Assembly (NCBI GenBank): GCA_963772205.1
Contig: CAVYXS010000258.1
Coordinates: 16,325 to 80,324, forward strand
Length of the DNA: 64,000 nt
Source of the DNA: an uncultured cyanobacterium
Lineage (GTDB): Bacteria; Cyanobacteriota; Cyanobacteriia; Cyanobacteriales; Nostocaceae
Direction of reading: 5' to 3'
Shown: piece after piece, positions 5,418-63,551 of the stretch
How positions within the stretch are numbered: the first letter of the stretch is position 1
Layout: the number at the start of each line of letters is the position of its first letter
Translations under genes and position numbers: made by a program
Notes under the pieces: model-generated
Seen by the model: the letters and a program-made list of their open reading frames with translations, nothing else
What the model was told of the DNA's origin: nothing
Database searches by the model: none

Positions 5418-5939
5418 TCACCGAGGATCTTGTGGGATATTCAATGGTTGTCCCGAACGGTCATAAACTAAAATATCCCACTGTCCATTGCTACTAGATT
5501 CAAACGCAATTCTATTACCATCGGCGCTAATGGCGGGGTTGCGGACTTCCGCTTGCAAATTAGCAGTTAAATTTCGTGATTGGCGTGTTTCTCTGTCGTA
5601 GAGGAGGATAGCCGATCGCCCTTGACGACTAGCAGCAAAAACGATGTAGCGACCATCACTAGAAACCCCAGGATGAGAAGCGATCGTATCAAAGGAATTT
5701 AAACCTGACAGATCAACCAAATTACTAGTTACAGTATCAAACATGTATATATCTTGGCTACCTCGGCGGTCACTGGTAAAAACAATGTATCTACCCGAAA
5801 TTTGGGGATTTAATTCCGAGGCTAGACTGTTGAGACTCCGACCCCCCGAATCAAACGGATAACTTAACAGACGCGGGTAGCCAAAACACCCATTCAAACC
5901 TAAGCACGTAAACACAGAAATCAAAATAGAGGGTTTCAT
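5418..5939 (-). CDS. TolB-like periplasmic beta-propeller (PD40 repeat) lipoprotein
   Basis: Repeated GRYIVF..SDR..G..DIY PD40-like motifs. N-terminal lipoprotein-like signal MKPSILISVFTCLGLNGC. Confidence 0.65.
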   Translation of the reverse strand: MKPSILISVFTCLGLNGCFGYPRLLSYPFDSGGRSLNSLASELNPQISGRYIVFTSDRRGSQDIYMFDTVTSNLVDLSGLNSFDTIASHPGVSSDGRYIVFAASRQGRSAILLYDRETRQSRNLTANLQAEVRNPAISADGNRIAFESSSNGQWDILVYDRSGQPLNIPQDPR

Positions 5940-6022: not shown

Positions 6023-6520
6023 CTACGGTGGTGGACTCACGGTGGCACCATTGGGAATATCTAACTCTATATTTGGCCCCCGGTCTAGGACTTCAATATC
6101 CCACTGACCACGGCTAGCCGTTTCAAATACAACATAACGTCCATCTGGACTGATTCCAGGCTTTCTGACCCAGCCACGATAGATTGGGGTGAGAATTTGC
6201 GATTGTTCGATAGCGCGATCGTAGAGTGCCACCACTGGTCTACCTTGGTCGCTAGTAAGATAAACAATATAACGCCCTGTGTAGCTCAGGCTAGGACTTT
6301 CGGCAATTGTTTCCCGTCGGTTTAAGCCTGGTATGCCGATAAAGCGTTGCTGTTCCAAGTCGTACATCAGTAACTGGTGATTACCATTACGATTGGAAAC
6401 AAAAGCTAAAAAGCGCCCATTTCCACTCAAAGTTGGTTGCTCTTCCGTGTAGCGACTATTGAGGGATGTAGTCCCAATGGGGATATCGCTCGAACTACAA
6501 GATACAAGCAGACTTACCAA
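6023..6520 (-). CDS. TolB-like periplasmic beta-propeller (PD40 repeat) lipoprotein, paralog of neighbour
   Basis: Same PD40 repeat pattern (GRFLAFVSNRNGNHQLLMYDL; GRYIVYLTSDQG; GRYVVFETASRGQWDI). Lipobox LLVSC. Confidence 0.65.
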   Translation of the reverse strand: MVSLLVSCSSSDIPIGTTSLNSRYTEEQPTLSGNGRFLAFVSNRNGNHQLLMYDLEQQRFIGIPGLNRRETIAESPSLSYTGRYIVYLTSDQGRPVVALYDRAIEQSQILTPIYRGWVRKPGISPDGRYVVFETASRGQWDIEVLDRGPNIELDIPNGATVSPPP

Positions 6521-7525: not shown

Positions 7526-8207
7526 AAAACCTCGCGGGATGTGGGAAACTCAGCTTTTAAAAGCTGAGAGGGAAACGGCACGAGCGAACGCCACTTGCTA
7601 CAACTTTGGGAACCAAAGCAATGCAGTGACTCCTTTAGTCGCAGTCCCCTTACGGGGGGGTGGTAGATAGAGGAACAGTATTTACCACCTTCCCTGTATG
7701 CCGAGAATCGCCTTGCTGTTCCAGTAATGTTAGCTTAGACCTGTTATCAGAAGCTCAGTAGGCTGAAAGCACTGTTCCAGTGACCTTAGAACTGTTTAAC
7801 TTACAGCGACAGAGCGGGGAACTAGCTACGCATTCCGAGGTGTCGTGACTCAAATAACGGCTACCCTTAGACTACAATCAGGGTGGTCTGGTCAGTACGG
7901 CTTGCTTGATTTCTCTTACAAGCCCAGTCCCTTTAGGGCTGGGTTACTGACTGCTGTTTTCCCAATATCAAATCTATGTTAGCGAGTCACAATTAAAATC
8001 ACTACTCTAATCCGGCACAATAATATAGATTAAAGCTTCAAAGCATCTAGTAAAGAAGCTCTGAAGCTATGTACCTCAAACTAAAAAGCTGATATCTGTC
8101 AGGTAAGTATACCTTGTCCTGGGTTGGAGGAATTGATGCTCCTAGGGGATTAAGGTAAATAGCTGACAGACAATCGATTATGAGGGTCTAATTAACTCCC
8201 TAAATGA

Positions 8208-24127: not shown

Positions 24128-25225
24128 TTATGCTTTTACACATAGCTTTGTACTCCGTTTGATAAGTTGAACTTTTGCTGGGCTGAATTGCCCAATTCTG
24201 CGCCAGTTGTGGTCATACACAGAAACATTTTTAGTTTTTGGAGTCTGCGTATAGCCACCAATCCAGCCAATATAAAATTTACCCGCTTTTTCAGCTTTCA
24301 CTAAGTCACCAGAACGTAATCCGAATGGCGTAATTGTTCCACCTTTGCGCTTTCTGTTGCCAGGAATATCTTTAACAGGGTTCTCGAAATGAAGCTGACG
24401 ACGGAATAGATTTGGACGCGCAATTATGCGGAATGGTGCAGGTGTAATAGCAACGAATCCTACCCAGCGATGTCCCCGACTATTAGCAGTGTGGAATTTC
24501 TCAAACCGCATGAAGTTGCTAGATGCTAATGCAATCCCGTCATGAGCATGAGTCTCTGGAGTTTGTTTTGATTTGTCTTTCTTGTCTTTAGATAATCCTA
24601 ATTGCTGCCTGAGTATTGAAGTCTGCCACCCTTCTTGTGTATTGGTTGGTACAATTTCACAGAGCCATTCCAGCATCACTTTTTGACCAACCATCACAGG
24701 ACTAAAACCTTTGTCGCCTTTCGCTTTGATGTATTCGTAGGTGATTTGAGTTACAGGAAATAATTTGACTAATTCTTTGGTAATTCGTAATTCTAATTCC
24801 TTGTTAGCGCGAATACTGGGAGGCAATTTATTCTGTTTGCGGTTGTTAAACCTTTTTTGACGGTGCGCCCTTTGATTAAACGTTACTTTGCGATTTATCC
24901 TTCTACCTCGTCTAGCACGTCTCAATAATCGTCTACCATCCATCTTTTTGGTGACATCTGAAAATGGCAATATTAGATGTGCCATAAATAATGTGAATTT
25001 AACAGACTGGACACCAACGCCAGTAAACTTTTTACCAGGGTCTAATCCCAAAGCTATTGATTGAGTGTCATAACCAGACGGTTCCACTAATAGCTGAATG
25101 CCAAAAATATTGAGGTCATTCTGTACAATCTTGGCTTTACCTTCCTTAAGCCAACGTCTAGCTCTACTGGCTTTTGTTGGCATCATGGGTTTACCGTTTT
25201 TATCTAACACTGGAACACGAATCAT
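24128..25225 (-). CDS. isrB: IsrB-like OMEGA RNA-guided nickase (IscB homolog lacking the HNH domain, IS200/IS605 superfamily)
   Basis: N-terminal RRXRR/PLMP domain MIRVPVLDKNGKPMMPTKASRARRWLKEGKAKIV; RuvC-I IALGLDPGKKFTGVGV; Arg-rich bridge helix RRLLRRARRGRRINRKVTFNQRAHRQKRFNNRK; RuvC-II ITYEYIKA; RuvC-III THAHDGIALASS. No CxxC…H…N HNH insertion between RuvC-II and III. 365 aa. Confidence 0.8.
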   Translation of the reverse strand: MIRVPVLDKNGKPMMPTKASRARRWLKEGKAKIVQNDLNIFGIQLLVEPSGYDTQSIALGLDPGKKFTGVGVQSVKFTLFMAHLILPFSDVTKKMDGRRLLRRARRGRRINRKVTFNQRAHRQKRFNNRKQNKLPPSIRANKELELRITKELVKLFPVTQITYEYIKAKGDKGFSPVMVGQKVMLEWLCEIVPTNTQEGWQTSILRQQLGLSKDKKDKSKQTPETHAHDGIALASSNFMRFEKFHTANSRGHRWVGFVAITPAPFRIIARPNLFRRQLHFENPVKDIPGNRKRKGGTITPFGLRSGDLVKAEKAGKFYIGWIGGYTQTPKTKNVSVYDHNWRRIGQFSPAKVQLIKRSTKLCVKA

Positions 25226-39386: not shown

Positions 39387-40969
39387 TTACTGCCAATTTC
39401 TCAACCGAAAGCGCACTGGCATTTTATCGGACGGATAAATTAACAGATTTTGCTGTAATTCTTCCAAAGAAGAACGACCGTTAACTAACTCCCAGTCGAA
39501 GTAGCGGAGCAATAATGCTAGCATCAGAGTTCCTTCTAGCATGGATAGATGCTCTCCCAAGCAACGATGAAGCCCTGAGCCAAAGTCTATCATTGGCAGT
39601 GAACTAGTTTCCTTATCCTTGTCTAACCAACGTTCTGGCAGAAATTCCTCCGGATTAGCATAGACTTGTGGATCTCTTCCAGCAGCAAGCATTGACCAGG
39701 ATACTCTTGTACCGCGAGGAATGACTTGACCCTCAATTACAGTGTCGCGTTGAGTCTCCAATGAAGTTGAGCCAGAAGCGACTGAATAGAGGCGCAATGT
39801 CTCCTTGAGAATTGCACTAATATAAGCCAATTCTTTGAAGCTTTCTGTATTAATACAGCCTTTGCTTTGCCAAACTTGGTCAACTATGTACCGTGCTTGC
39901 TGAAAAACCTTTTGATTTAAGCTCAACTCTCCGACTGCAAAGGATAAAGTATGGGCTGTTGTGTCAGTACCAGCTATTAAGAGTTCAACAGATTCTGCTA
40001 TTAATGTTTCGCGATTGTATTTTGGTTCTTTAGCAGCAATTTTGACTAACATTGATTCAGGAAACAAAGGACTGACTTGTGGTAAATCGGTCTGGCTTTG
40101 TTCTCTCATCTGTAAAGCTGAGGTCTACACGGGGAGTGAGAAATTCCTCTCAAATATCGCCTTGCTGCCCAATAATCTCGGGAATTCTTAGTGGGCAAAT
40201 ATTTCATCCATATCTTCTCTCCAGTAGCTTGGCGTAGGAACCGATAGCCAACAACAGACATTGCTTCATACACCTTGAGAACTTCCAGGATAGGCCCTTA
40301 TGACTAGTACCGTTCTATCCACAGGAATGCCTAAGTACTAAACTAGGAAATTACCCTCATTGTTAGTTCGACAAACAGAGGATCTACCTGAACTTCTTTT
40401 GGTAGCGCAGCTTCTTTCAGTGTCTCAATTACTTGTTCGCAGGCTTGGTTAATAATTTCCACATATTTGGAGAGACTGCTAGAACTGAATTCCGGTTCCA
40501 AGCCTTGCGTCGCCACTGCCACTCAGTCCCAGTTTCTCCTATCATAATGGGACTAGTAATATCGTTCCAAGCTTTGCGTAATCGCTCAGAATCTAATTAA
40601 GCTACCATCTCTCATCCCATTGACAATGGTATCTTCGATAACTTTTGGTTTACTTAAAACGACAACTGGAGAACCGCCATTCCACATCACATACATCGGC
40701 CCTAGCTGTTGACTCCAATCAAACATTAATTGGAATAATTTTTTCTGTTTCACTGCTGCTAATATTTGCGGAAGATTTCCTAACAGCCAGTGTTTGGGAG
40801 GAGAAGGGAGTGATTCTAGCGCTTTGTATGTGTTCTTTTGTTTCCACCAGCGCCACCCAATTGTTCCCGCTATGGTAGTAACGCCTAAGACTGTGGCTAA
40901 AGATGGAAGTGAGTCAGAATAAGCAATCTGAGCAGTAATGTTTTGAAACATGAATCCGCCTTTATCCAC
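39387..40969 (-). pseudogene. cytochrome P450, disrupted. N-terminal fragment 40586-40969, C-terminal fragment 39387-40109; the ~475-nt middle has no open frame.
   Basis: C-terminal fragment has I-helix AGTDTT, ETLRL (K-helix ExxR) and heme-binding FGSGLHRCLG. N-terminal fragment has a membrane-anchor/P450 N-terminus. No continuous ORF joins them. Confidence 0.7.
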
Positions 40970-42068: not shown

Positions 42069-43169
42069 TTAAAGCAAAGACAACTGCTCATTAGGCGGCT
42101 TAAAGCCCAAATGCTTGTAGGCTGCAGTTGTCGCTATTCTGCCACGGGTAGTCCGGCTTAAATAGCCTATTTGCATTAAATAAGGTTCATAAACTTCTTC
42201 TATGGTTTGGGTATCTTCACCCGTCGCAGCGGCTAAGTTTTCTAATCCCACAGGTCCACCATTAAAGTGTTCAATAATCACACTCAGCATTTTCCTGTCT
42301 GTCCAATCTAAGCCGCATGGGTCTACTTGAAATAGATGTAATGCCTCTGCTGCAACGCTTTCGTTTATTTCACCCAATAATTTTACCTCTGTATAATCAC
42401 GTACTCGCTTGAGTAATCTATTGGCGATACGTGGTGTTCCCCGCGCCCGACGAGCAATTTCTGTGGCGCCATCTTCGGCGATCGCGGTTTGAAGTATTTG
42501 TGCAGTTTGCAGGACAATTTGGGTGAGTTCGTCAACTTCGTAAAATCGCAGTTTCTGAATTAAGCCAAAGCGATCGCGTAGTGGTGAAGAGAGGGCACCT
42601 GCACGTGTTGTCGCTCCCACTAAAGTAAATTTTGACAAGGGTATACTGCGAATGCGAGCGCTGGAACCTTTACCGATGGTAATATCTAGGCGATAATCCT
42701 CCATTGCCGGATAAAGAATTTCTTCTGTCATTCGCGAAAGACGATGAATTTCATCCACAAACAAAATATCTCCTGGTTTTAAGTTCACCAGTAGCCCTAC
42801 AATATCCCGTGGACGTTCTAGTGCTGGCGCACTAGTTATTTTGCAGTTTACCCCCATCTCTGATGCTAAAATCATTGCCATTGTGGTTTTTCCCAATCCC
42901 GGCGGCCCGTACAGCAGCAAGTGATCCAGCACTTCACTCCGTGACTTAGCTGCTTTTATGGCAATATCTAGCACATCCTTTAGGTCTTTTTGCCCAATGT
43001 AATCAGCAAATCGCTGGGGTCGAATAGTCTCTTCTTGCTTATCTTGCTCATCAATAGCGGCTTCAGCTTGCAAAAGGTCTGGTTTAGGAGGAGCTTTCGC
43101 CAACTCTCGCTGCTGCTTTGGTTGTCCATTGGGTTCTGGAGGCTGTTTTTTCGAGGAGATAATCGCCAT
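42069..43169 (-). CDS. ruvB: Holliday junction branch migration DNA helicase RuvB
   Basis: [23 protein letters not shown] Walker A, FVDEIHRL, RuvB C-terminal winged helix. 366 aa. Confidence 0.95.
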
Positions 43170-46676: not shown

Positions 46677-47399
46677 TCAAGCTGGGAGTTCCGCACCTGC
46701 AGAGCGATCCAGCAACCACAAGAGTTCTCCTTGGGGTTGAATGAAGCGAGAAGGGTAGGTGAATTCATCAGCTACGGGTGCAAAGACTTGAGCTAAAGCG
46801 GGTCGTTTATTAGCACCTGCAACCAAAAAAATCACACTCCTAGCCGCGTTGATGAATGGATAGGTAAAGGTGATGCGGAGGCTGCTATCTTTGTTACCCA
46901 CAGTAATCAGGCGATCGCGAACTTTTAACGCCTCTGTGTGCGGAAACAAAGATGCTGTATGGGCATCATCTCCCATTCCTAGCAAGACTACATCGAGAGC
47001 GGGAAACTCTCCGGATGCCGTATGAAAAAATTCTTGTAGATGCTGTTCATACTTAGTCGCTGCTAGGGCTGGATCGCTTTCTGTGGTGGGTATGGGGTGA
47101 ATATTAGCCGCTGGGATATCAACACGATCTAGCCATGCGCGACGCGCCATCAGTTCATTGCTATCGGGATGATCCGGTGGGACATAACGTTCATCCCCCC
47201 AGAATACATGAATTTTATCCCAAGGCAGTTTTTGATTAGCAATCGCCTCGTACAACGGCTTAGGAGTACTACCGCCAGCTAAAGCAATAGTAAACCGCCC
47301 CCGCTGTTCAATAGCAGTTTCTATCTTCGACAATATTAACTCTAGCGCTCGCGCTACGAGCGCGGCCTGATCCGGTAGAACTTCAACCGTTTTGTTCAT
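46677..47399 (-). CDS. pgl: 6-phosphogluconolactonase
   Basis: FTIALAGGSTPKPLYEAIANQKLPWDKIHVFWGDERYVPPDHPDSN is the Pgl/DevB family signature. Confidence 0.9.
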   Translation of the reverse strand: MNKTVEVLPDQAALVARALELILSKIETAIEQRGRFTIALAGGSTPKPLYEAIANQKLPWDKIHVFWGDERYVPPDHPDSNELMARRAWLDRVDIPAANIHPIPTTESDPALAATKYEQHLQEFFHTASGEFPALDVVLLGMGDDAHTASLFPHTEALKVRDRLITVGNKDSSLRITFTYPFINAARSVIFLVAGANKRPALAQVFAPVADEFTYPSRFIQPQGELLWLLDRSAGAELPA

Positions 47400-55344: not shown

Positions 55345-55773
55345 CTATAAACGCCAATTATCTAATATAAGAGGATAACCTAAACCCTGAATTCTTTGAT
55401 AATGAGATAAATTACCAGTTACTAAAGTTAGATTATGACTAATAGCGATCGCCGCAATCATACAATCAGGATAACCAATTCTTTTTCCTGTTAATTCTAA
55501 ATCAGCGTATATTTTCCCCGCTAATACAGATTCAGTCAACTCCAAGCTTAATATCTCTTGTGAAGTTAATATATTTAAGAATTGTTCAAGACGTTCTTCT
55601 TGTTTACGTTTTCTCCAACCTTCGACAATTTCCATTACAGTAATCACGGAAATTGTGTATCTCTCAAATTGGTTTATATAAATATGAGCTTTGGCAACAA
55701 TCTGAGGATTTGCTCGTTTAATAATTTCTGAGAGAATATCGGTATCAAGTAGCGATTTCTCTACTTTATTCAT
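55345..55773 (-). CDS. vapC: type II toxin VapC (PIN domain)
   Basis: LLDTDILSEIIK… PIN-domain acidic residues. 8-nt overlap with the upstream antitoxin gene. Confidence 0.8.
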   Translation of the reverse strand: MNKVEKSLLDTDILSEIIKRANPQIVAKAHIYINQFERYTISVITVMEIVEGWRKRKQEERLEQFLNILTSQEILSLELTESVLAGKIYADLELTGKRIGYPDCMIAAIAISHNLTLVTGNLSHYQRIQGLGYPLILDNWRL

Positions 55774-55999
55774 TTGCTACATTATATCCTCTTTTTTCCA
55801 TTGCCTCAGCTAAAATTTCATCAACAACTTCTGGAATATCAGCATATAATCCCATCAAAGGGTCGTTTTTATCCTGAATTTCTGCTAAACGCGCCATTAC
55901 TTGAGTAAGCAATTCTGATACAGTTGATTGATTAAGCATTGCCAAGGTTTTTACTCGTTCCAAGGTTCGTCTATCTATTTCCAGTTCTATCTTTTCCAT
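55766..55999 (-). CDS. vapB: type II antitoxin (VapB-like)
   Basis: 77-aa ORF overlapping vapC start by 8 nt, typical TA operon architecture. Confidence 0.65.
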   Translation of the reverse strand: MEKIELEIDRRTLERVKTLAMLNQSTVSELLTQVMARLAEIQDKNDPLMGLYADIPEVVDEILAEAMEKRGYNVANE

Positions 56000-56169
56000 T
56001 TCATCTCCATTTGATATACTAAGTAATAACTGATTGTATAATCTAACATATTGTTTTGTTTATTTCATAATAATTGGTTTTGTCTCATTTGTGAGATTTG
56101 TATTGCTTCCCATTCAAATGAAGTACAAAATCATATCACGCTGTGTAGGGGCACGGCACTGCCGTGCCC

Positions 56170-56338
56170 TTACCGATGTACCTCACGCTTGTCGATAAAT
56201 GCTATAGCATGAGTTGTATTAACTTGAACACGATAGAGAATGTATCCAATTTCGTCAATAACATCTTCAGGAAATTCTAATAATTCTTCTTTGGTGTAGT
56301 TTACCCAAATAACTGTTTTAACTGGATCATTAGTCATA
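56170..56338 (-). pseudogene. Gp49-like/RelE-ParE-superfamily toxin N-terminal fragment, truncated by MITE insertion
   Basis: Minus-strand translation MTNDPVKTVIWVNYTKEELLEFPEDVIDEIGYILYRVQVNTTHAIAFIDKREVHR* (56 aa) resembles the first half of phage Gp49/DUF891 toxins. It ends inside the GGGCACGGCACTGCCGTGCCC MITE core. Confidence 0.45.
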
Positions 56339-56407: not shown

Positions 56408-57780
56408 TTAACTCTTAACTCCTAATTTGAGAATCTTCCCTGTAACACCCAAACTTTCTTCAAAAAGCGCCTCATGTCCCCAGCGTTGTACCTGCTGACT
56501 CAGCAGCACTTCCGCCTTTTGTTCAGAAAGTGAACTCACTTGTTGAAACAAACCTGCAGATTGGGCGCCACCGTGTGTTTCCATCCGCATACAGCCACCA
56601 GTTTCCGTACAGATGACAATACCGCAGTCTGCTTGAGGATTGGTGGAACTTAAACGAAAAGCAATCAAGTCGCCGCTAACTTCACCCACATCAGCAACTG
56701 GAACGCCTGCTAACTCGGCTTCTATTTGCCGTTGGTCATTTGCCAGCAAGCGGATGCGGGTGATATCATAATCTCCGCTTTCTTTGGCATAGGAAACCGG
56801 CAGCCATTGTAACCGACTTGCTAGCCAACCTAAAAATAGCAAAGCCTGTGCAGGGTTGCCTTTTTCATAATCTATCGTTACGCGGTCAATTTCTCGAAGA
56901 GCTGCGCGACGATGGGGGGAATCGTAGGCTTGAGCAGTCAATTCTTGCCATGCGGCTAGGCGACGCCAGTTCAAATCAGCTAGGGGTATACCAGTTTGCA
57001 CCAACTCTTCTAAGCTGAGTAAATCGGTTTCTGGCTCGTTAAAGTTGCAAGAATCTACAATCACATTATTACAAACCGCAGCCAGTCGCTTGAATACTGC
57101 GTTATTGGGATCTGGTGTCGCCTTCCACCAGAGAAACTTGGGCAACCCACCAATTAACAAAGCCGGAATCATCCCACCAATTCGTTCTAAGGCAGCAGCT
57201 GTGCCCGAAAGAGTGATATATTCGCAGCAAATGAGGGTGCTAGAAGATTGCTTTTGAATGGGGCAATAGGCAGAAACTTGAGCTTTCACCCCTTCATCTT
57301 CACCAGCAATGGGACACAGGGCAATAATCCGGCACGGGTTGCGGATAGCAATTTCATCGGCAATCCTGGGGCTACTGGCATCACCATAAGTAATATTACC
57401 AGAACCATTGTCTCCCGCTCCACCGCCTTGACGTTTCGCGAATTTTTCCCGCAATATTGCCAAGGTTTCTGGCGTAGCAATGCCAGTTTCTGGTAGTCCA
57501 TTTTGTCGCTGAACTTCCCGCAGCGCTGCTTCCGTTTGGGGCCTAAAATCCCATCAATCGGGCCGTGATAAAACCCCAGAGCAGCTAAAAGATACTGGGT
57601 TTCTTCTGGTTCGTAAACCACTAAAGTAAAAGTTGTGGCACGAGTCGCAGCGGGAAGCCCACCGTCTTCACCAGTAATGCCGTAACTTTGCCAAATTTGA
57701 TTCAGTTCCGCCTCTATGTCTGAAAGCGAAACATCCTTGGGTGCCTGAAGTCGAAAAATTGTGGGAGCTTGGGAAGTCAT
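56408..57780 (-). pseudogene. opcA: glucose-6-phosphate dehydrogenase assembly protein OpcA, -1 frameshift at a homopolymer near 57538-57541
   Basis: N-terminal 75 aa (MTSQAPTIFRLQAPKDVSLSDIEAELNQIWQSY…FYHGPIDGILGP) in one frame; the remainder (…AILREKFAKRQGGGAGDNG…) in another. Restoring one C in CCCC (coding strand) gives a continuous OpcA. Confidence 0.8.
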
Positions 57781-57786
57781 AATAGT

Positions 57787-57856
57787 TGTCAGTTGTTATT
57801 TGTCAGTTGTCATTGGTCATTGGTCATTGATTTTGACTAATGACTAATGACTAAAT
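57787..57856. repeat. STRR2-like heptamer array (CATTGGT)n … (TGACTAA)n, inverted
   Basis: TTGTCAGTTGTCATTGGTCATTGGTCATTGATTTTGACTAATGACTAATGACTAAA between opcA and zwf. Confidence 0.8.
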
Positions 57857-57857
57857 T

Positions 57858-59386
57858 CTAGAGTCTGCGCCAGCGGCGATTATCTTGATTAATTAAGAAT
57901 TCCGCTTCGGCTGGTTCCCAAGTACCGGCTTCGTACTGGGGAATAGTGTTTGGATCTGCGGGTGCATCCCAAACAGAAAGGGCTGGTGTCACAACCTGCC
58001 AAGCTGCTTCTACTTCGTCGGCGCGGGTGAATAATGTCTGGTCGCCCATCATACAATCGAGGAATAGGCGATCGTAAGCATCAGATGTGGCTTGGATGCC
58101 AAAGGAACCATAACTAAAGTCCATGTCAACGGAACGGGTGCGGAATTCTGCCCCTGGCATTTTTACGTCAAAACGCAGGGAAATTCCTTCGTTCGGTTGA
58201 ATTCGCATTGCTAAAATGTTGGCATTTGTCTGTTGGGCTGCAGACTTGAACATCCGTGATGGCACTTCCCGGAAGTGGATGGAAATTTCGCTGACTTTTT
58301 TCGGCATCCGCTTACCAGTACGCAGGTAAAAAGGAACACCCTGCCAACGCCAGTTATCCACCATAAATTTCATGGCTACATAGGTGGGTGTGGTCGAATT
58401 CGGATTAACTCCGGGTTCTTTTCTATACCCTTCTACAGCTTGCCCTTTCATCCAGCCAGCGCTGTATTGACCGCGCACGGCTGAACGTGACAAATTATGT
58501 ACGTCTGCTAAACGTGTAGCTTGTAGCGCCTTTACTTTTTCCGTGCGGATACTATCAGCATCCATTGAATTGGGTGCTTCCATCGCGGTTAAGCAGTAAA
58601 GTTGCATCAAGTGGTTTTGCAACATATCCCGCAGGCGCCTGCACTTTCATAATATCCGGCGCGGTCTTCCACTCCCACAGTTTCTGCCACAGTAATTTGT
58701 ACGTGGTCAACAAACTGGCGATTCCACAAGGGTTCAAAAATCGCATTGGCAAAGCGAAACACCAGCAAATTCTGGACTGTTTCTTTACCCAAGTAGTGGT
58801 CAATGCGGTATACTTGATTTTCTTTGCAGAATTTCTGTACCACTTGGTTTAGGCTTTGGGCTGAAGCCAAGTCCCGACCAAAGGGTTTTTCAATTACCAG
58901 ACGATGTTTGTAGGGATCTTCTAACATCCCCCCTGAACCTAGTTGTCTAATGGCTTCAGGAAAGAAGTTTGGCGCAACGGAGAGGTAAAACATGCGGTTT
59001 CCCCGTGTACCCCGTTTTTCGTCTAATTCACTCAATAAAGTTTTGAGTTTTTGGTAGCTTTCAGGGTTGTCTATGTCCCCTGGAGAGTAGAACAGACCTT
59101 GAGAAAAGTCTTGCCAGAGTTCCCCAAGTTCGACATTGGGATGAGCCTCTTCCATCCCCTTCTGCATTTGTTCGCGGAAGTATTCGTGGCTCCACGCCCG
59201 ACGTGCGACACCAACAATCGTGGTTTCTGGGGGAATGCGTCGTTCCCGTCGTAATTTGTAAAGCGCTGGCACTAGTTTACGCCAGGTAAGGTCACCGGAG
59301 GCGCCAAAGATGACTATAATTTGGGGTTCGGGCATCCCTTGTTGTTGCAGTCCAACGCGCAAAGGATTTTCTAGCAGACTGACCAT
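57858..59386 (-). pseudogene. zwf: glucose-6-phosphate 1-dehydrogenase, -1 frameshift at a homopolymer near 58630
   Basis: N-terminal half (…[12 protein letters not shown]…RIDHYLGKE…[10 protein letters not shown]) ends CGICCKTT*. C-terminal half starts [18 protein letters not shown] in another frame. Inserting one C restores …[15 protein letters not shown]…. Confidence 0.8.
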
Positions 59387-59487
59387 AGGAATTTTAGATT
59401 TTAGATTGTGGATTTTGGATTAGGGTATGGGGCATGGGGCAATAGGGCATGGGTAAAAATCAGTACACAGTCCCTAGTCCCCAGTCT

Positions 59488-60633
59488 CTATGCTGGTGAC
59501 AATTTCTTGACCTTACCTTCCAAAGAGTTCATCAAGGATTGGTAGGGTTTGATAAACTTGTCAATGCCTTCAATTAGCAGTTCGTCCATGACTGCATGAA
59601 TATCGATGTTGATGTCGGGATCTTTCAGGCTTTCGATCAGCTGGTAAGCTTCTGGAATGCCTGTTTCCAAGCGATTGGCGACATCGCAGTGATCAGCGCA
59701 CGCTGCAATGGTCTCCGGTGGGAGGGTGTTCACCGTATCAGTCCCAATCAACTCATTGACATACATCACGTCGCTGTAGCTGGGGTCTTTGGTGCTGGTG
59801 CTGGCCCAAAGTAGACGCTGGACTTTTGCCCCTTTTGCTGCTAATGCTTCCCAGCGATCGCTTTGGATGATCTTTTTGTATTCCTGATAAGCGACTTTGG
59901 CATTAGCGATCGCTATTTTGCCGCGAATCAAGTGCAGCTTTGGTGCTTGGACAATATCATCAACACCTTTCTTCAACTTAGCATCAATCCTGGCGTCAAT
60001 GTTTTTATCAATCCGGCTGAGGAAAAAGCTAGCTACTGAAGCTATTTTGCTAATATCCTTACCTGATGCTGCTCGTTTTTCTAAGCCGCGAATATATGCC
60101 CAAGCTGAATTAATATAGCTGGTCACAGAAAACAGCAGTGTGATATTGACATTGATGCCATTGGCTATTGATTGTTCTACGGCGGGTAAACCAGCCTCTG
60201 TGCCGGGAATTTTAATCATGACATTTTCCCGACCAATCTCTTGAAAATAGCGCTGCGCTTCGGCAATTGTGGCTTGAGTATCATGGGCGATGGTGGGTGG
60301 TACTTCTAGGCTCACATAACCATCTAGTCTATTCGTGGCTTCATATACAGGGCGCAGAATATCACAAGCATTGCGGATATCTGCAAAAGCTAGAGATTCA
60401 TAAATTTTGTATGTCGGTAATCCAGCGCCAATTCCGGCTTCAATATCGGCATCATAAATGACATTTCCAGCAATTGCTTTTTCAAAGATAGCTGGGTTGG
60501 AGGTAATCCCAGAGATTCCCTGATTTTCAACCAGGTTTTTGAGTTCGCCTGATTGAATAATGTCACGGCTCAAATTATCTATCCAGATACTTTGACCGTA
60601 TTGTTTTATTTCTAATAGGTGATTAGTTGCCAT
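59488..60633 (-). CDS. tal: transaldolase (long cyanobacterial type)
   Basis: MATNHLLEIKQYGQSIWIDNLSRDII…ITSNPAIFEKAIAG… matches the transaldolase family. Upstream of zwf, as in the fbp-tal-zwf-opcA operon. Confidence 0.9.
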   Translation of the reverse strand: MATNHLLEIKQYGQSIWIDNLSRDIIQSGELKNLVENQGISGITSNPAIFEKAIAGNVIYDADIEAGIGAGLPTYKIYESLAFADIRNACDILRPVYEATNRLDGYVSLEVPPTIAHDTQATIAEAQRYFQEIGRENVMIKIPGTEAGLPAVEQSIANGINVNITLLFSVTSYINSAWAYIRGLEKRAASGKDISKIASVASFFLSRIDKNIDARIDAKLKKGVDDIVQAPKLHLIRGKIAIANAKVAYQEYKKIIQSDRWEALAAKGAKVQRLLWASTSTKDPSYSDVMYVNELIGTDTVNTLPPETIAACADHCDVANRLETGIPEAYQLIESLKDPDINIDIHAVMDELLIEGIDKFIKPYQSLMNSLEGKVKKLSPA

Positions 60634-60952
60634 AGGGGTAATTGTCCTCCTGCTATTTAGCTGTTCAATTTGATTTTGGCAAGGCTAATCAATGGATTTG
60701 GATTTGTGATTTTTGGCTTTGCCAATACTGTGTATTTTGGCTTGACCAATCACCTATCTCATCGACCTACTGAGATACTTTATAATTTACAAACAGATCA
60801 CCAAGATAGACTTTTGCTTACTCGGTGATATTAGATGCATCCTCAAAACTTTGGTCACTCACTTGCTTTGCTATTCAAGATTCAGCTGGCAGCATTCAAA
60901 CAATCAAAAACATTGAGCAATTATACTGCCATCATTGGGAATTTTGCATTGC

Positions 60953-62002
60953 CTAGTGACCGTTGTGTGTAAAAGACTCCACCTTGGCTACATCCTCTTT
61001 GCTACCAATAATCAGAGGCGTACGCTGGTGCAATTTTTTCGGCACTACGTCTAATATATCTACAAGTCCTGTAGTAGCTCGACCCCCTGCTTGTTCAATC
61101 AAAAAGGCTAGGGGAGCAGTTTCATACAGCAGGCGCAATTTTCCTTCTGGTTTTTGAATTGTGCCTGGGTAGAGAAATACACCACCTTGAACTAAAATTC
61201 TATGGATATCGCTGACCATTGCGCCGCTATAACGAGCGACATAACCTTCTGTACGATGGACGTAGCGGATGTATTCCCGATAGGATTCTTCCCACTGCCA
61301 AAAATTACCCTCGTTGACGCTATACACAGAACCGTGGGTAGGAATCTGGATATTTTCTTCTGTGAGGATGAATTCCCCTAAGCTGGGATCAAGGACAAAC
61401 GAATGGACTCCCTTGCCTATAGTATAGACCAGCATTGTGCTTGGGCCATATAGAATGTATCCGGCAGCAAGTTGCTTGCGTCCATTGGTAAGCAGATCAG
61501 TTGCTTTTCCATCACTATCGTTTCCTTCTTGTTGGCGAATGGAGAAGATGGAACCCAAACTGAGATTAGTGTCGGTGTTGGATGAGCCGTCAATGGGGTC
61601 ATACAATAAGGTGTAGCGCCCAATGGGACAATTTTCGGGTATATAGTAGGGTTTTTCCATTTCCTCGGAAGCTAGGCGACAGACTAAGCCGCTTTGCTTA
61701 AACACCGAGATAAATACCTCATTGGCATAGACATCCATCTTTTTGACGGATTCTCCCTGTACATTGACTTCCCCAGTAAATCCGAGAACTCCTTCCATTA
61801 AACCAGCACGGCTGAGGCGACGAGCAATTAATTTACCTGCCAAGCCGATGCGATTCATCAGCGCACTCAGATCCTGTGCATCTGCTGAAAAACTCTGCAG
61901 TTGCTGTAAAACATGACGGGATAAGGTTGTACAATCACGATCTAGGCTGTTGTCTGTAGCGTAGTCGATAGACAAATCTATTGATTCTGGGGCTTGAGCC
62001 AT
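60953..62002 (-). CDS. fbp: fructose-1,6-bisphosphatase class 1
   Basis: …[19 protein letters not shown]…[18 protein letters not shown]…YPGT are FBPase class 1 motifs. 349 aa. Confidence 0.9.
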
Positions 62003-62494
62003 TGTTGTTTTCTTCCTCGCGACTAGCTCGTGGTTTAGTTTATGCTGTTCGTGACATCTTATTTATAGTCGCTGCCTCTATCTTAGAAAGGTAATTTGCG
62101 AACTTAAATGTGATTTTAGATAAACTAAAGAAATGAATCTGTTTGTTTGCTATACCCAGTGCGATGCCTGGGTTGGGCGTAGCCATCGCCAAGCTAAAAT
62201 TATTTAATTGAGTAAATTTGCCTAATTTTACTTTTGAGTGCTATTATTGAATTGTGACTTCCCCTTCTGGATGGGGACAATCCTAAATAAATTGACAATT
62301 ACATACTATACTAGTCAAAATCTCCTTTGACATTGGGAAAACCGACTAGTTGTGACATCGGTCTGTTGAACACAACTAGTCGGGTTTGGGTTGATAAAAT
62401 TGTTTGGTTTCATAGTTAATTGTTTCTAGCAAATTTCACTGACAGATGTCTTGCCTAACTAGAAAACAATTGCTAGAATTATAATTCATTTTAA

Positions 62495-62782
62495 TTACTC
62501 TTCTGGTTTATTAGCCCAGCTACCTCGTCGGTTATTATCCTCTCGCGGTTTGGCTTTATTAACTCTGAGTTGACGCCCCATCCATTCTGCCCCATCTAAT
62601 TCTGTGATAGCAGCGTCTTCCTGGGCATCTTCTGTCATTTCTACAAAGGCAAAGCCACGCATCCGCCCTGTTTCGCGGTCTGTAGGCAAGACAACTCGTT
62701 TGACCTCGCCATAGTCTGCAAAGACTGCTTTTAGGTCTGCTTCGGTAGCGCGGTAGGAGAGATTTCCAACGTAAATAGTCAT
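62495..62782 (-). CDS. rbp: RRM-type RNA-binding protein
   Basis: RNP2 IYVGNL and RNP1 RGFAFVEM motifs. 95 aa with a short basic C-terminus. Confidence 0.9.
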   Translation of the reverse strand: MTIYVGNLSYRATEADLKAVFADYGEVKRVVLPTDRETGRMRGFAFVEMTEDAQEDAAITELDGAEWMGRQLRVNKAKPREDNNRRGSWANKPEE

Positions 62783-63551
62783 GTGGGATCACGTAAATTT
62801 AAACAAACAGCGGTTTGTTCAGTTGTAAAACAGATATAACAAATTGCAATTACTGCACAGTCTCTTCTGATTTACCTATGGCAAATTATGTAAGAGATTT
62901 ACCATTATGGTAACAATCTCTACAACTAAATGAGCTAGGTGGCTGAACTTACGCATACGCTCATATAATACCTGATTATAATATTTTTCAAAGTATGAGA
63001 TTTTACAATCGCTCATAACATATAATCAGGTAAACTTATAGTTTATTAGTTATGTTGATTTTTTTATTATCTATTACTGAGTAACAATGTAAAAATAATT
63101 ACTCAATAATATAGCTTATTTATCTTTCAAGTCCTCTACGACCGTTGTATTGCAAAGATTATGGACTCAATCAACCTAAAAACTGTATTAGTGATGACGA
63201 TTCATTAAGTATCATATTACAATTAAAAAATCGCTGACATGTCAGTGTTTAATTTAGCACTCAGCACTCACAACAATTTTAAATTGTTGTTGACGTTCTT
63301 AGTAGCGCTTTAGCCTCATATCTGCCTCTGGGGATTGATTTTTCAAGTTAAAATTCAGGACTGAAGTCCTGACTACGAACTTATTCAAGTCAGAACTAAT
63401 CAGACACACTACTAGTAGTCACCAAAGGAACAAGGCTTGGTTTGTAGTTAGGACTAAAGTCCTAAGAAAGCGATAAATCGCTTACTACATACTAAGCATC
63501 ATTTGTGTGGTGAACCACTAGGCTATAAATATGTTTTAGTATTTTATCATT

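Follow-up and report, generated by a model that had tools for sequence, protein, structure and literature searches.

Adjacent one-base frameshifts in zwf and opcA of a Gloeotrichia echinulata sister species are probably errors of the deposited contig

Introduction

Glucose-6-phosphate dehydrogenase (G6PDH) is encoded by zwf, and OpcA is a redox-controlled activator of this enzyme (PMC7242069, PMC13071761). The locus studied here, which lies in a 64-kb stretch of a public contig (hereafter the window), shares its four genes, their order and their location on a single strand with the fbp-tal-zwf-opcA operon of Nostoc punctiforme ATCC 29133 and Anabaena/Nostoc sp. PCC 7120. Unlike the operon of these heterocystous cyanobacteria, however, the window has a zwf and an opcA that are each one base short. 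The question raised by this locus is whether its organism has lost G6PDH and OpcA or whether the deposited sequence is in error.

Results

Operon layout and source organism

Based on the list of open reading frames (ORFs) and their Pfam domains, all four genes lie consecutively on the minus strand, in the order given by the first-pass annotation of this DNA. The first gene of the operon, fbp (60953..62002, minus strand), is intact and encodes a class 1 fructose-1,6-bisphosphatase of 349 aa in which the FBPase and FBPase_C domains are both full. A Logan contig of ERR11593882 with 100% identity to window positions 59806-63379 encodes this exact protein as well. The transaldolase gene tal (59488..60633, minus strand; 381 aa) is likewise intact. 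It covers TAL_FSA profile positions 1-284 of 285, and its product is identical at 380 of 381 residues to that of the tal on an ERZ1426850 contig. The G6PDH gene zwf (57858..59386, minus strand; 1529 nt) and the activator gene opcA (56408..57780, minus strand; 1373 nt) are each present as two ORFs, and opcA adjoins zwf on the downstream side, the position expected of an OpcA gene. In addition, the window carries an intact pgl (46677..47399, minus strand; Glucosamine_iso profile 1-225 of 225) for 6-phosphogluconolactonase, the enzyme that follows G6PDH in the oxidative pentose phosphate pathway, and the exact protein was found on five contigs.

The source organism is a sister species of Gloeotrichia echinulata, with about 91.5% DNA identity to this relative, which was found through an OpcA protein search. 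In the species-representative genome collection, the best DNA match to the window was only about 83% identical. In G. echinulata, a deletion of about 500 bp removes the 3' 170 or so codons of tal, and zwf and opcA are intact there. We take this truncation to be real because it was reproduced in all ten independent loci (10/10), which come from genomes and metagenomes.

One-base lesions in zwf and opcA

The split of zwf into two overlapping ORFs, as first reported, was borne out: one ORF runs 59386->58607 (259 aa) and the other 58625->57858 (255 aa). The 259-aa ORF includes a complete G6PD_N and G6PD_C profile positions 1-44, and the 255-aa ORF includes G6PD_C positions 48-296. A single Zwf polypeptide should have G6PD_N followed by a complete G6PD_C in about 509 aa; here G6PD_C is cut at 44-48, and one extra base placed behind GGCGC (between 58635 and 58634) restores this arrangement in an unbroken protein of 509 aa. 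The lesion (58634..58635, minus strand) leaves the Ala251 codon without its third base (GGC GC_ CTG CGG). At 58632-58639 the window reads GGCGCCTG, to be contrasted with GGCGCNCTG in the longer-allele reading, and the extra base is present in 90 of 90 aligned related loci. The first-pass annotation had therefore recognized a missing base correctly, but its reading of this base as a C lost from a homopolymer is only one candidate, since the wobble base of Ala251 differs among relatives: most have A, G. echinulata has T (GCT CTG) and 3 of the 90 have C.

We also found that the 12 nt at the zwf site, GCAGGCGCCTGC (58630-58641), form a perfect palindrome where the undeleted sequence would have only a quasi-palindrome. 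Templated quasi-palindrome correction is a known mechanism of real mutation, and a perfected palindrome is its signature. The window has 22 perfect palindromes of 12 nt or longer, and 9% of random sites fall within a stem of at least 6; as a mark of a real mutation, the quasi-palindrome signal at zwf is weak.

In opcA, both the split into two ORFs, 57780->57286 (164 aa) and 57463->56408 (351 aa), and its attribution to one C missing from a homopolymer agree with the earlier account. The lesion (57538..57541, minus strand) is a run of four Cs in place of the five in the intact allele (GGC CCC CAA, encoding Gly80 Pro81 Gln82). L091, a Logan contig of ERR11593882, reads GGCCCCCAAACGG there, and relatives likewise have one base more than the window. 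The frame is broken at codons 80-82, inside the PG_binding_1 insert of OpcA (PG_binding_1 spans residues 59-110), and adding one C to the CCCC run at 57538-57541 gives a single uninterrupted OpcA of 457 aa. The 351-aa ORF keeps the OpcA_G6PD_assem and OpcA_G6PD_C domains and lacks the first 106 or so residues. The repaired OpcA matches chain E of PDB 9emm, an OpcA, with E = 4e-156. Annotated Nostocales proteins share 82-94% identity with the repaired forms of Zwf (509 aa) and OpcA (457 aa, PG_binding_1 insert included). The first-pass argument that two homopolymer deletions of identical type had occurred is only half verified, because the lost zwf base could be one other than C; the change from C5 to C4 in a homopolymer is established for the opcA site only.

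Intact alleles in other assemblies

Three independent ENA metagenome contig sets (ERZ1426849, ERZ1426850 and ERZ1426854) were compared with the window at the level of proteins, ORFs and lengths. The repaired Zwf is the same as P0125 of ERZ1426849 (509 aa; 0/509 residues differ), and the repaired OpcA is the same as P0122 of ERZ1426850 and ERZ1426854 (457 aa; 0/457 residues differ). In ERZ1426849 zwf is uninterrupted over 509 aa, in ERZ1426854 its ORF stays open as far as the stop codon, and in ERZ1426850 it is uninterrupted for 423 aa beginning at the start; opcA encodes 457 aa in all three. The lengths of zwf and opcA are 1530 and 1374 nt in these sister assemblies versus 1529 and 1373 nt in the window, and the spacers are equal (77 nt between zwf and opcA, 70 nt after opcA). 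From the same strain, L091 (1,022 bp) shows no substitutions in 1,020 nt against window positions 57923-56904, and across the four Logan contigs of ERR11593882, L091-L094 (9,265 bp), the window is odd at one position only, the C4 run.

L091 carries a frameshift of its own in opcA, an added A at about 57198, which would amount to a parallel loss of opcA in a second dataset. We set this aside as what looks like a read error because other private differences of ERR11593882 also alter conserved residues, namely GA to ST in RuvB, within the only GGCGCC there, and GGSTP to GGRTP in Pgl, in its GGSTP motif. Both the RuvB discrepancy and the lesion of zwf lie on GGCGCC, a motif with only eight occurrences in the window. 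Related samples differ slightly from one another (OpcA G40C, Tal M368I and several differences in RuvB), indicating that the population is polymorphic.

In NCBI and ENA, a single public contig, of 135,538 bp, is on record for the zwf fragments of 259 aa and 249 aa (the latter counted from the following ATG) and for the opcA fragment of 351 aa. This contig is the source of the window, and all four zwf and opcA fragments occur solely there. As expected of an artefact, the lesions are seen in a single assembly and the intact state in independent data. A genuine pseudogene should be seen again in independent data of the lineage, and there was no other record with either fragment. Scans of metagenomes for either allele of the two lesion sites found nothing (0 hits), and none of six guessed partial products (three of Zwf, three of Tal), sought as a way to reach a Logan contig over the zwf site, was on record. 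The literature searched yielded nothing on the accession numbers. As for signs of relaxed selection, such as further lesions or excess substitutions, none of the 966 residues was changed, and neither gene had a further lesion.

Error signals elsewhere on the contig

Further error-like single-base indels, also expected of an artefact, occur elsewhere on the same contig. In a cytochrome P450 gene (40969->39387, minus strand), frameshift-aware alignment to the intact P0227 located eight indels, all of a single base (five extra, three missing), within 473 bp (40119..40591) of the 1.58-kb gene. The repaired ORF encodes 520 aa without in-frame stops and is 92% identical, with 93% identity inside the patch versus 87% and 94% in the flanks. 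The patch looks like one of technical errors because it consists purely of single-base indels without excess substitutions. A Pfam search for other broken genes among the large ORFs and gene-gap ORFs of the 64-kb window disclosed none besides the P450 gene; about 55 other genes look full-length by Pfam.

Runs of G or C in the window number 51 of length 5, nine of length 6 and two of length 7, and the 5:4 ratio is 0.18, as in relatives. A globally homopolymer-compressed assembly was rejected, since the run-length spectra match those of relatives. The bases deleted from zwf and opcA both follow the 7-mer AGGCSCC, a context present at only five loci in the window, and this common context fits a context-specific systematic error. 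A methylation motif (GGCGCC or GGCC) is a suggestive source of a basecalling error behind the zwf lesion, although the GGCGCC at zwf may be the deletion's own product.

Discussion

The two frameshifts are probably errors of assembly or consensus in the deposited contig, since the zwf and opcA breaks are confined to one assembly. Error was also the first choice of the first-pass annotation, and it is the best-supported explanation here, with lesions private to the contig, intact alleles elsewhere and the P450 patch. The organism would then most likely have an ordinary, intact fbp-tal-zwf-opcA operon with a 509-aa G6PDH and a 457-aa OpcA. The contig would be under-corrected locally, in stretches that include zwf-opcA, for example where a long-read consensus or gap fill was incompletely polished. 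The lesions resemble the split-gene artefacts of draft and long-read assemblies in that they are of a single base, are limited to one assembly, come with no substitutions, give an identical frame after repair and are accompanied by a second indel cluster. They differ from such artefacts in that the G/C homopolymers of the window are not globally shortened and a homopolymer is proven at the opcA site only. The lack of general shortening speaks against error, and so does the clustering: the only two isolated frameshifts are separated by 1.1 kb and affect both genes of a single functional unit, as would be expected of a real loss of function. Independent random errors would land together in zwf and opcA with a probability of a few per cent.

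Real, very recent loss-of-function alleles, including those of a mixed-strain consensus, are a possible but less favoured origin of the breaks. In the simplest form, which we consider unlikely, the dominant genotype of the sample would bear the two frameshifts jointly, and neither G6PDH nor OpcA would be made. The lesions strike an enzyme and its dedicated activator and spare the neighbouring genes, much like young frameshift pseudogenes of host-restricted or laboratory-adapted bacteria, in which an enzyme and a partner gene are hit and the remainder is intact. The absence of general homopolymer compression, the polymorphic population and the truly eroded operon of G. echinulata, with its truncated tal, also fit a real loss. 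Plausible routes exist, too, as the zwf lesion would stem from quasi-palindrome correction and the opcA lesion from homopolymer slippage during replication. Young pseudogenes, however, would not be expected to show an absence of substitutions and further lesions together with an intact allele in every other dataset found, and here three assemblies and one Logan contig have the intact state against a single assembly with the lesions. Under sequential neutral decay many substitutions would be expected before a second frameshift and there are none, so that two independent indels would need either selection for each hit or hitch-hiking. Moreover, zwf mutants of Nostoc punctiforme, reportedly those of Summers et al. 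in 1995, are said to be unable to fix N2 or to grow in the dark. G6PDH has also been reported as important for the reducing power of nitrogenase in heterocysts (PMC7242069). The loss should therefore be costly for a heterocystous organism, and the contig does hold error-like indels in the P450 patch. It is also conceivable, but quite improbable, that the contig is a mixed-population consensus in which real alleles from different cells were joined into a haplotype that no cell carries. Several near-identical strains coexist, the sister assemblies are broken up at this locus into short contigs (1.6-6.4 kb) whose ends fall within or beside zwf and opcA, and the Logan contigs break at 59806, 57923 and 56904; strain bubbles or low coverage typically produce breaks of this kind. 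Such a consensus would nevertheless require two independent loss-of-function alleles at appreciable frequency, and the added A of L091 is unusable as support.

Even less credible is a functional role for the breaks, whether as a slipped-strand ON/OFF switch, through programmed ribosomal frameshifting or as cooperating split halves. In favour of such a role, the opcA tract reads C4 in one dataset and C5 in another of the same strain, the frame of opcA could in theory be recovered, as GPKTEAALRE, by a -1 slip on CCC AAA, and the downstream 351-aa ORF retains both OpcA-specific Pfam domains. On the other hand, contingency loci typically have tracts of 7 or more units. Slipped-strand switching, the third possibility named by the first-pass annotation, would call for a long simple-sequence tract conserved in relatives, but the tracts are only C4/C5 in opcA and at most C2/C3 in zwf, and they are not conserved. 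In the relatives the genes are uninterrupted and the codons at the two sites vary (GGT CCC CAA, GGG CCT CAG, GCA CTG and others). No slippery heptamer of the form X XXY YYZ was found in the zero frame at opcA (GGC CCC AAA CGG) or zwf (GGC GCC TGC GGG), and all homologues are single ORFs, with no conserved frameshift architecture. The zwf break falls inside G6PD_C, and we know of no split G6PDH.

If the frameshifts are errors, as we consider probable, the splitting of zwf, opcA and the P450 gene is a matter of curation for this 135-kb contig, which is public and unannotated, and automated pipelines using it would mistakenly report that the species lacks the oxidative pentose phosphate pathway. 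If they are real, the population would be without the oxidative pentose phosphate route to reductant for nitrogenase in heterocysts and for dark metabolism. A population of this heterocyst-forming relative of Gloeotrichia, natural or cultured, would just have lost G6PDH and OpcA, and the operon might, on this doubtful premise, be in the course of being dismantled in the lineage. Such a loss would challenge the view of G6PDH as the main source of nitrogenase reductant and as a requirement for dark survival in heterocystous cyanobacteria and, in combination with the tal truncation in G. echinulata, would point to a lineage-specific rewiring of sugar catabolism.

Results

Four genes, fbp (60953-62002, 349 aa), tal (59488-60633, 381 aa), zwf and opcA, lie in a row on the minus strand of the window. 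The zwf gene is divided into two overlapping ORFs, of which one (59386 to 58607, 259 aa) carries the complete G6PD_N domain and positions 1-44 of the G6PD_C profile and the other (58625 to 57858, 255 aa) carries G6PD_C positions 48-296. Similarly, opcA is split into an ORF of 164 aa without a Pfam match (57780 to 57286) and one of 351 aa that includes OpcA_G6PD_assem and OpcA_G6PD_C (57463 to 56408). A 509-aa Zwf is restored by inserting a single base between 58635 and 58634, after GGCGC, and a 457-aa OpcA by lengthening the CCCC run at 57538-57541 by one C; the first-pass annotation had given the right coordinates and peptide readings for both split genes. OpcA residues 59-110 (57451-57606, minus strand) form a peptidoglycan-binding-like PG_binding_1 insert at the junction of the N-terminal segment and OpcA_G6PD_assem, which is common to all top Nostocales homologues. 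Short tandem repeats of heptamer type (CCCCATG, CCAAAAT, TCATTAG and CAATGAC) make up the tal-zwf (59387-59487) and zwf-opcA (57781-57857) spacers.

The nearest species is Gloeotrichia echinulata, which has about 91.5% DNA identity and the same gene order. At the zwf site, an extra base relative to the window was found in all 90 aligned related loci, at the third position of the codon for Ala251 (GCN CTG CGG GAT ATG). This base is A in most of the 90 loci, T in the ten G. echinulata loci, G in some and C in only three. The zwf lesion is a single-base deletion, and its placing within a homopolymer is unproven. At the opcA site, relatives encode Gly-Pro-Gln by many codon combinations; for example, G. 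echinulata uses GGT CCC CAA and many Nostoc use GGG CCT CAG. A Logan contig of the same strain from run ERR11593882 (L091) has no substitutions against window positions 57923-56904 and reads GGC CCC CAA, a C5 run, and on this sequence comparison we regard the C5 to C4 contraction in opcA as proven. Hence the earlier proposal of homopolymer deletions in both genes holds for opcA and is unproven for zwf. Both deleted bases follow AGGCSCC, and the window has only five loci with this context.

Across four Logan contigs of ERR11593882, 9,265 bp of the window can be compared. These contigs are L092 (3,574 bp, no differences), L093 (3,515 bp, two substitutions), L094 (1,154 bp, one substitution) and L091 (1,022 bp, two indels). 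In four of the five differences it is the Logan contig that deviates from conserved residues, which indicates that these Logan data are noisy; the C-run of opcA is the only one in which the window is the deviant. L093 changes Gly-Ala of RuvB, retained in G. echinulata and in a sister protein from ENA, to Ser-Thr through two G to A changes at 42465-42470, within the only GGCGCC of that 3,515-bp stretch. L094 turns the GGSTP motif of Pgl into GGRTP. L091 has its own +A frameshift in opcA, which, as the run is noisy, is no evidence of parallel gene loss; its C5 call is credible since the ENA proteins agree with it. A GGCGCC, one of only eight in the whole window, also underlies the zwf frameshift, and the zwf and RuvB discrepancies may possibly be a motif-linked sequencing artefact, perhaps related to methylation.

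The 351-aa opcA, 259-aa zwf and 249-aa zwf C-terminal fragments are on record for one 135,538-bp NCBI/ENA contig only, and the frameshifts are thus part of the deposited sequence. The repaired Zwf is identical to a protein (P0125) of the sister metagenome assembly ERZ1426849, the only one with complete zwf on one contig (1530 nt, versus 1529 nt in the window; 509 aa). In ERZ1426854 the zwf ORF is unbroken to its stop, and in ERZ1426850 the first 423 aa lie on one contig and the last 131 aa on another. All three assemblies encode a 457-aa OpcA (1374 nt, versus 1373 nt in the window). ERZ1426850 and ERZ1426854 encode exactly the repaired OpcA (P0122), and G40C is the sole difference in the protein of ERZ1426849 (P0001). 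The spacers after zwf (77 nt) and after opcA (70 nt) are equal in length in the window and the sister contigs; the tal-zwf spacer is 101 nt in the window versus 100 nt in two sister assemblies.

Pfam scans of all large ORFs and gene-gap ORFs of the window found full-length domain coverage in about 55 genes, including accC, atpB/atpE, ruvB, hisF, pgl, adk, thyX and cobB. The sole exception is a cytochrome P450 gene (40969 to 39387, minus strand). In a frameshift-aware alignment with an intact 527-aa homologue (P0227), this gene shows five extra and three missing bases, eight single-base indels in all, at 40591, 40497, 40345, 40335, 40316, 40299, 40150 and 40119, within 473 bp. No in-frame stops remain after indel repair, and the 520-aa product is 92% identical to P0227 (93% in the patch versus 87% and 94% in the flanks, with no excess of substitutions). 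As all eight lesions are of one base and fall within 30% of the gene without excess substitutions, the patch looks like uncorrected consensus, unlike natural decay, and the contig thus includes at least one patch of low quality. Among the database homologues of this P450, many are fragments too. General homopolymer compression of the assembly was ruled out, since the G/C run spectra (51, 9 and 2 runs of 5, 6 and 7) match those of relatives.

Two adjacent small PD40-repeat ORFs, at 5418-5939 (173 aa) and 6023-6520 (165 aa) on the minus strand, are in different frames and 83 nt apart; the 173-aa product also occurs on a Logan contig, which makes it probable that this ORF is a genuine gene of its own rather than part of a split one. 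A full-length HEARO RNA (Rfam RF02033, 129 bits; 7724-7951, minus strand) adjoins ycf66 and has no IscB-type ORF adjacent to it; a separate RRXRR-family (IscB-like) ORF (365 aa; 24128-25225, minus strand) is found at a distance of 16 kb. Between opcA and cobB (55345-56337, minus strand) are ORFs of 55, 77 and 142 aa, the last a putative PIN-type toxin in what reads like a toxin-antitoxin pair. In G. echinulata this position is taken instead by an HTH_37 gene and an ORF of 74 aa, and the ERZ1426849 sister contig has another, different gene after the 55-aa ORF.

Discussion

We consider it probable that both frameshifts are artefacts. A single record carries the lesions, four other datasets show the intact state, the 966 codons of zwf and opcA show no substitution or second lesion, an error-like P450 patch lies on the same contig, and both sites share the AGGCSCC context. 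Assembly or sequencing error, suggested in the first-pass annotation, is therefore the favoured explanation. A real double mutant is unlikely, yet it draws on several observations: the 64 kb contain no isolated frameshifts other than these two, which lie 1.1 kb apart and affect an enzyme and the activator dedicated to it, and a global homopolymer problem is absent. In addition, the sister species G. echinulata keeps, of the 381 residues of tal in this operon, just the first 199-212 or so, with the 3' part swapped for GGGGACT and other heptamer repeats, reproducibly in 10 of 10 independent loci from genomes and metagenome contigs (for example L082 7604-8365, corresponding to window 59453-60038). 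The zwf deletion also produces the perfect 12-nt palindrome GCAGGCGCCTGC (58630-58641), which any restored base reduces to a quasi-palindrome, and could stem from templated quasi-palindrome correction; its statistical weight is low, as the window has 22 perfect palindromes of 12 nt or more and 9% of random sites fall within a stem of 6 or more. Against real mutations, sequential neutral decay should have brought many substitutions ahead of a second frameshift, and the lack of any makes it unlikely. A real origin would require selection or a mixed-strain consensus; a mixed consensus of real alleles is in itself very unlikely.

Slipped-strand ON/OFF switching, also raised at first, was rejected together with programmed frameshifting and split genes, and any functional frameshift or phase variation is highly improbable. 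With 4-5 and 2-3 bases the tracts are too short, they are not conserved, the zero frame has no canonical slippery heptamer at either site, homologues are single ORFs throughout, and the zwf break severs the catalytic C-terminal domain.

Nostoc punctiforme zwf mutants reportedly neither fix N2 nor grow in the dark (Summers et al. 1995). Heterocyst nitrogenase receives reducing power from G6PDH, of which OpcA is the redox-regulated activator (PMC7242069, PMC13071761). Given this role of G6PDH in N2 fixation and dark growth, a real loss would come at a high cost and is less probable a priori. Most probably, the operon is intact in the organism and its biology ordinary, misrepresented by two consensus errors.
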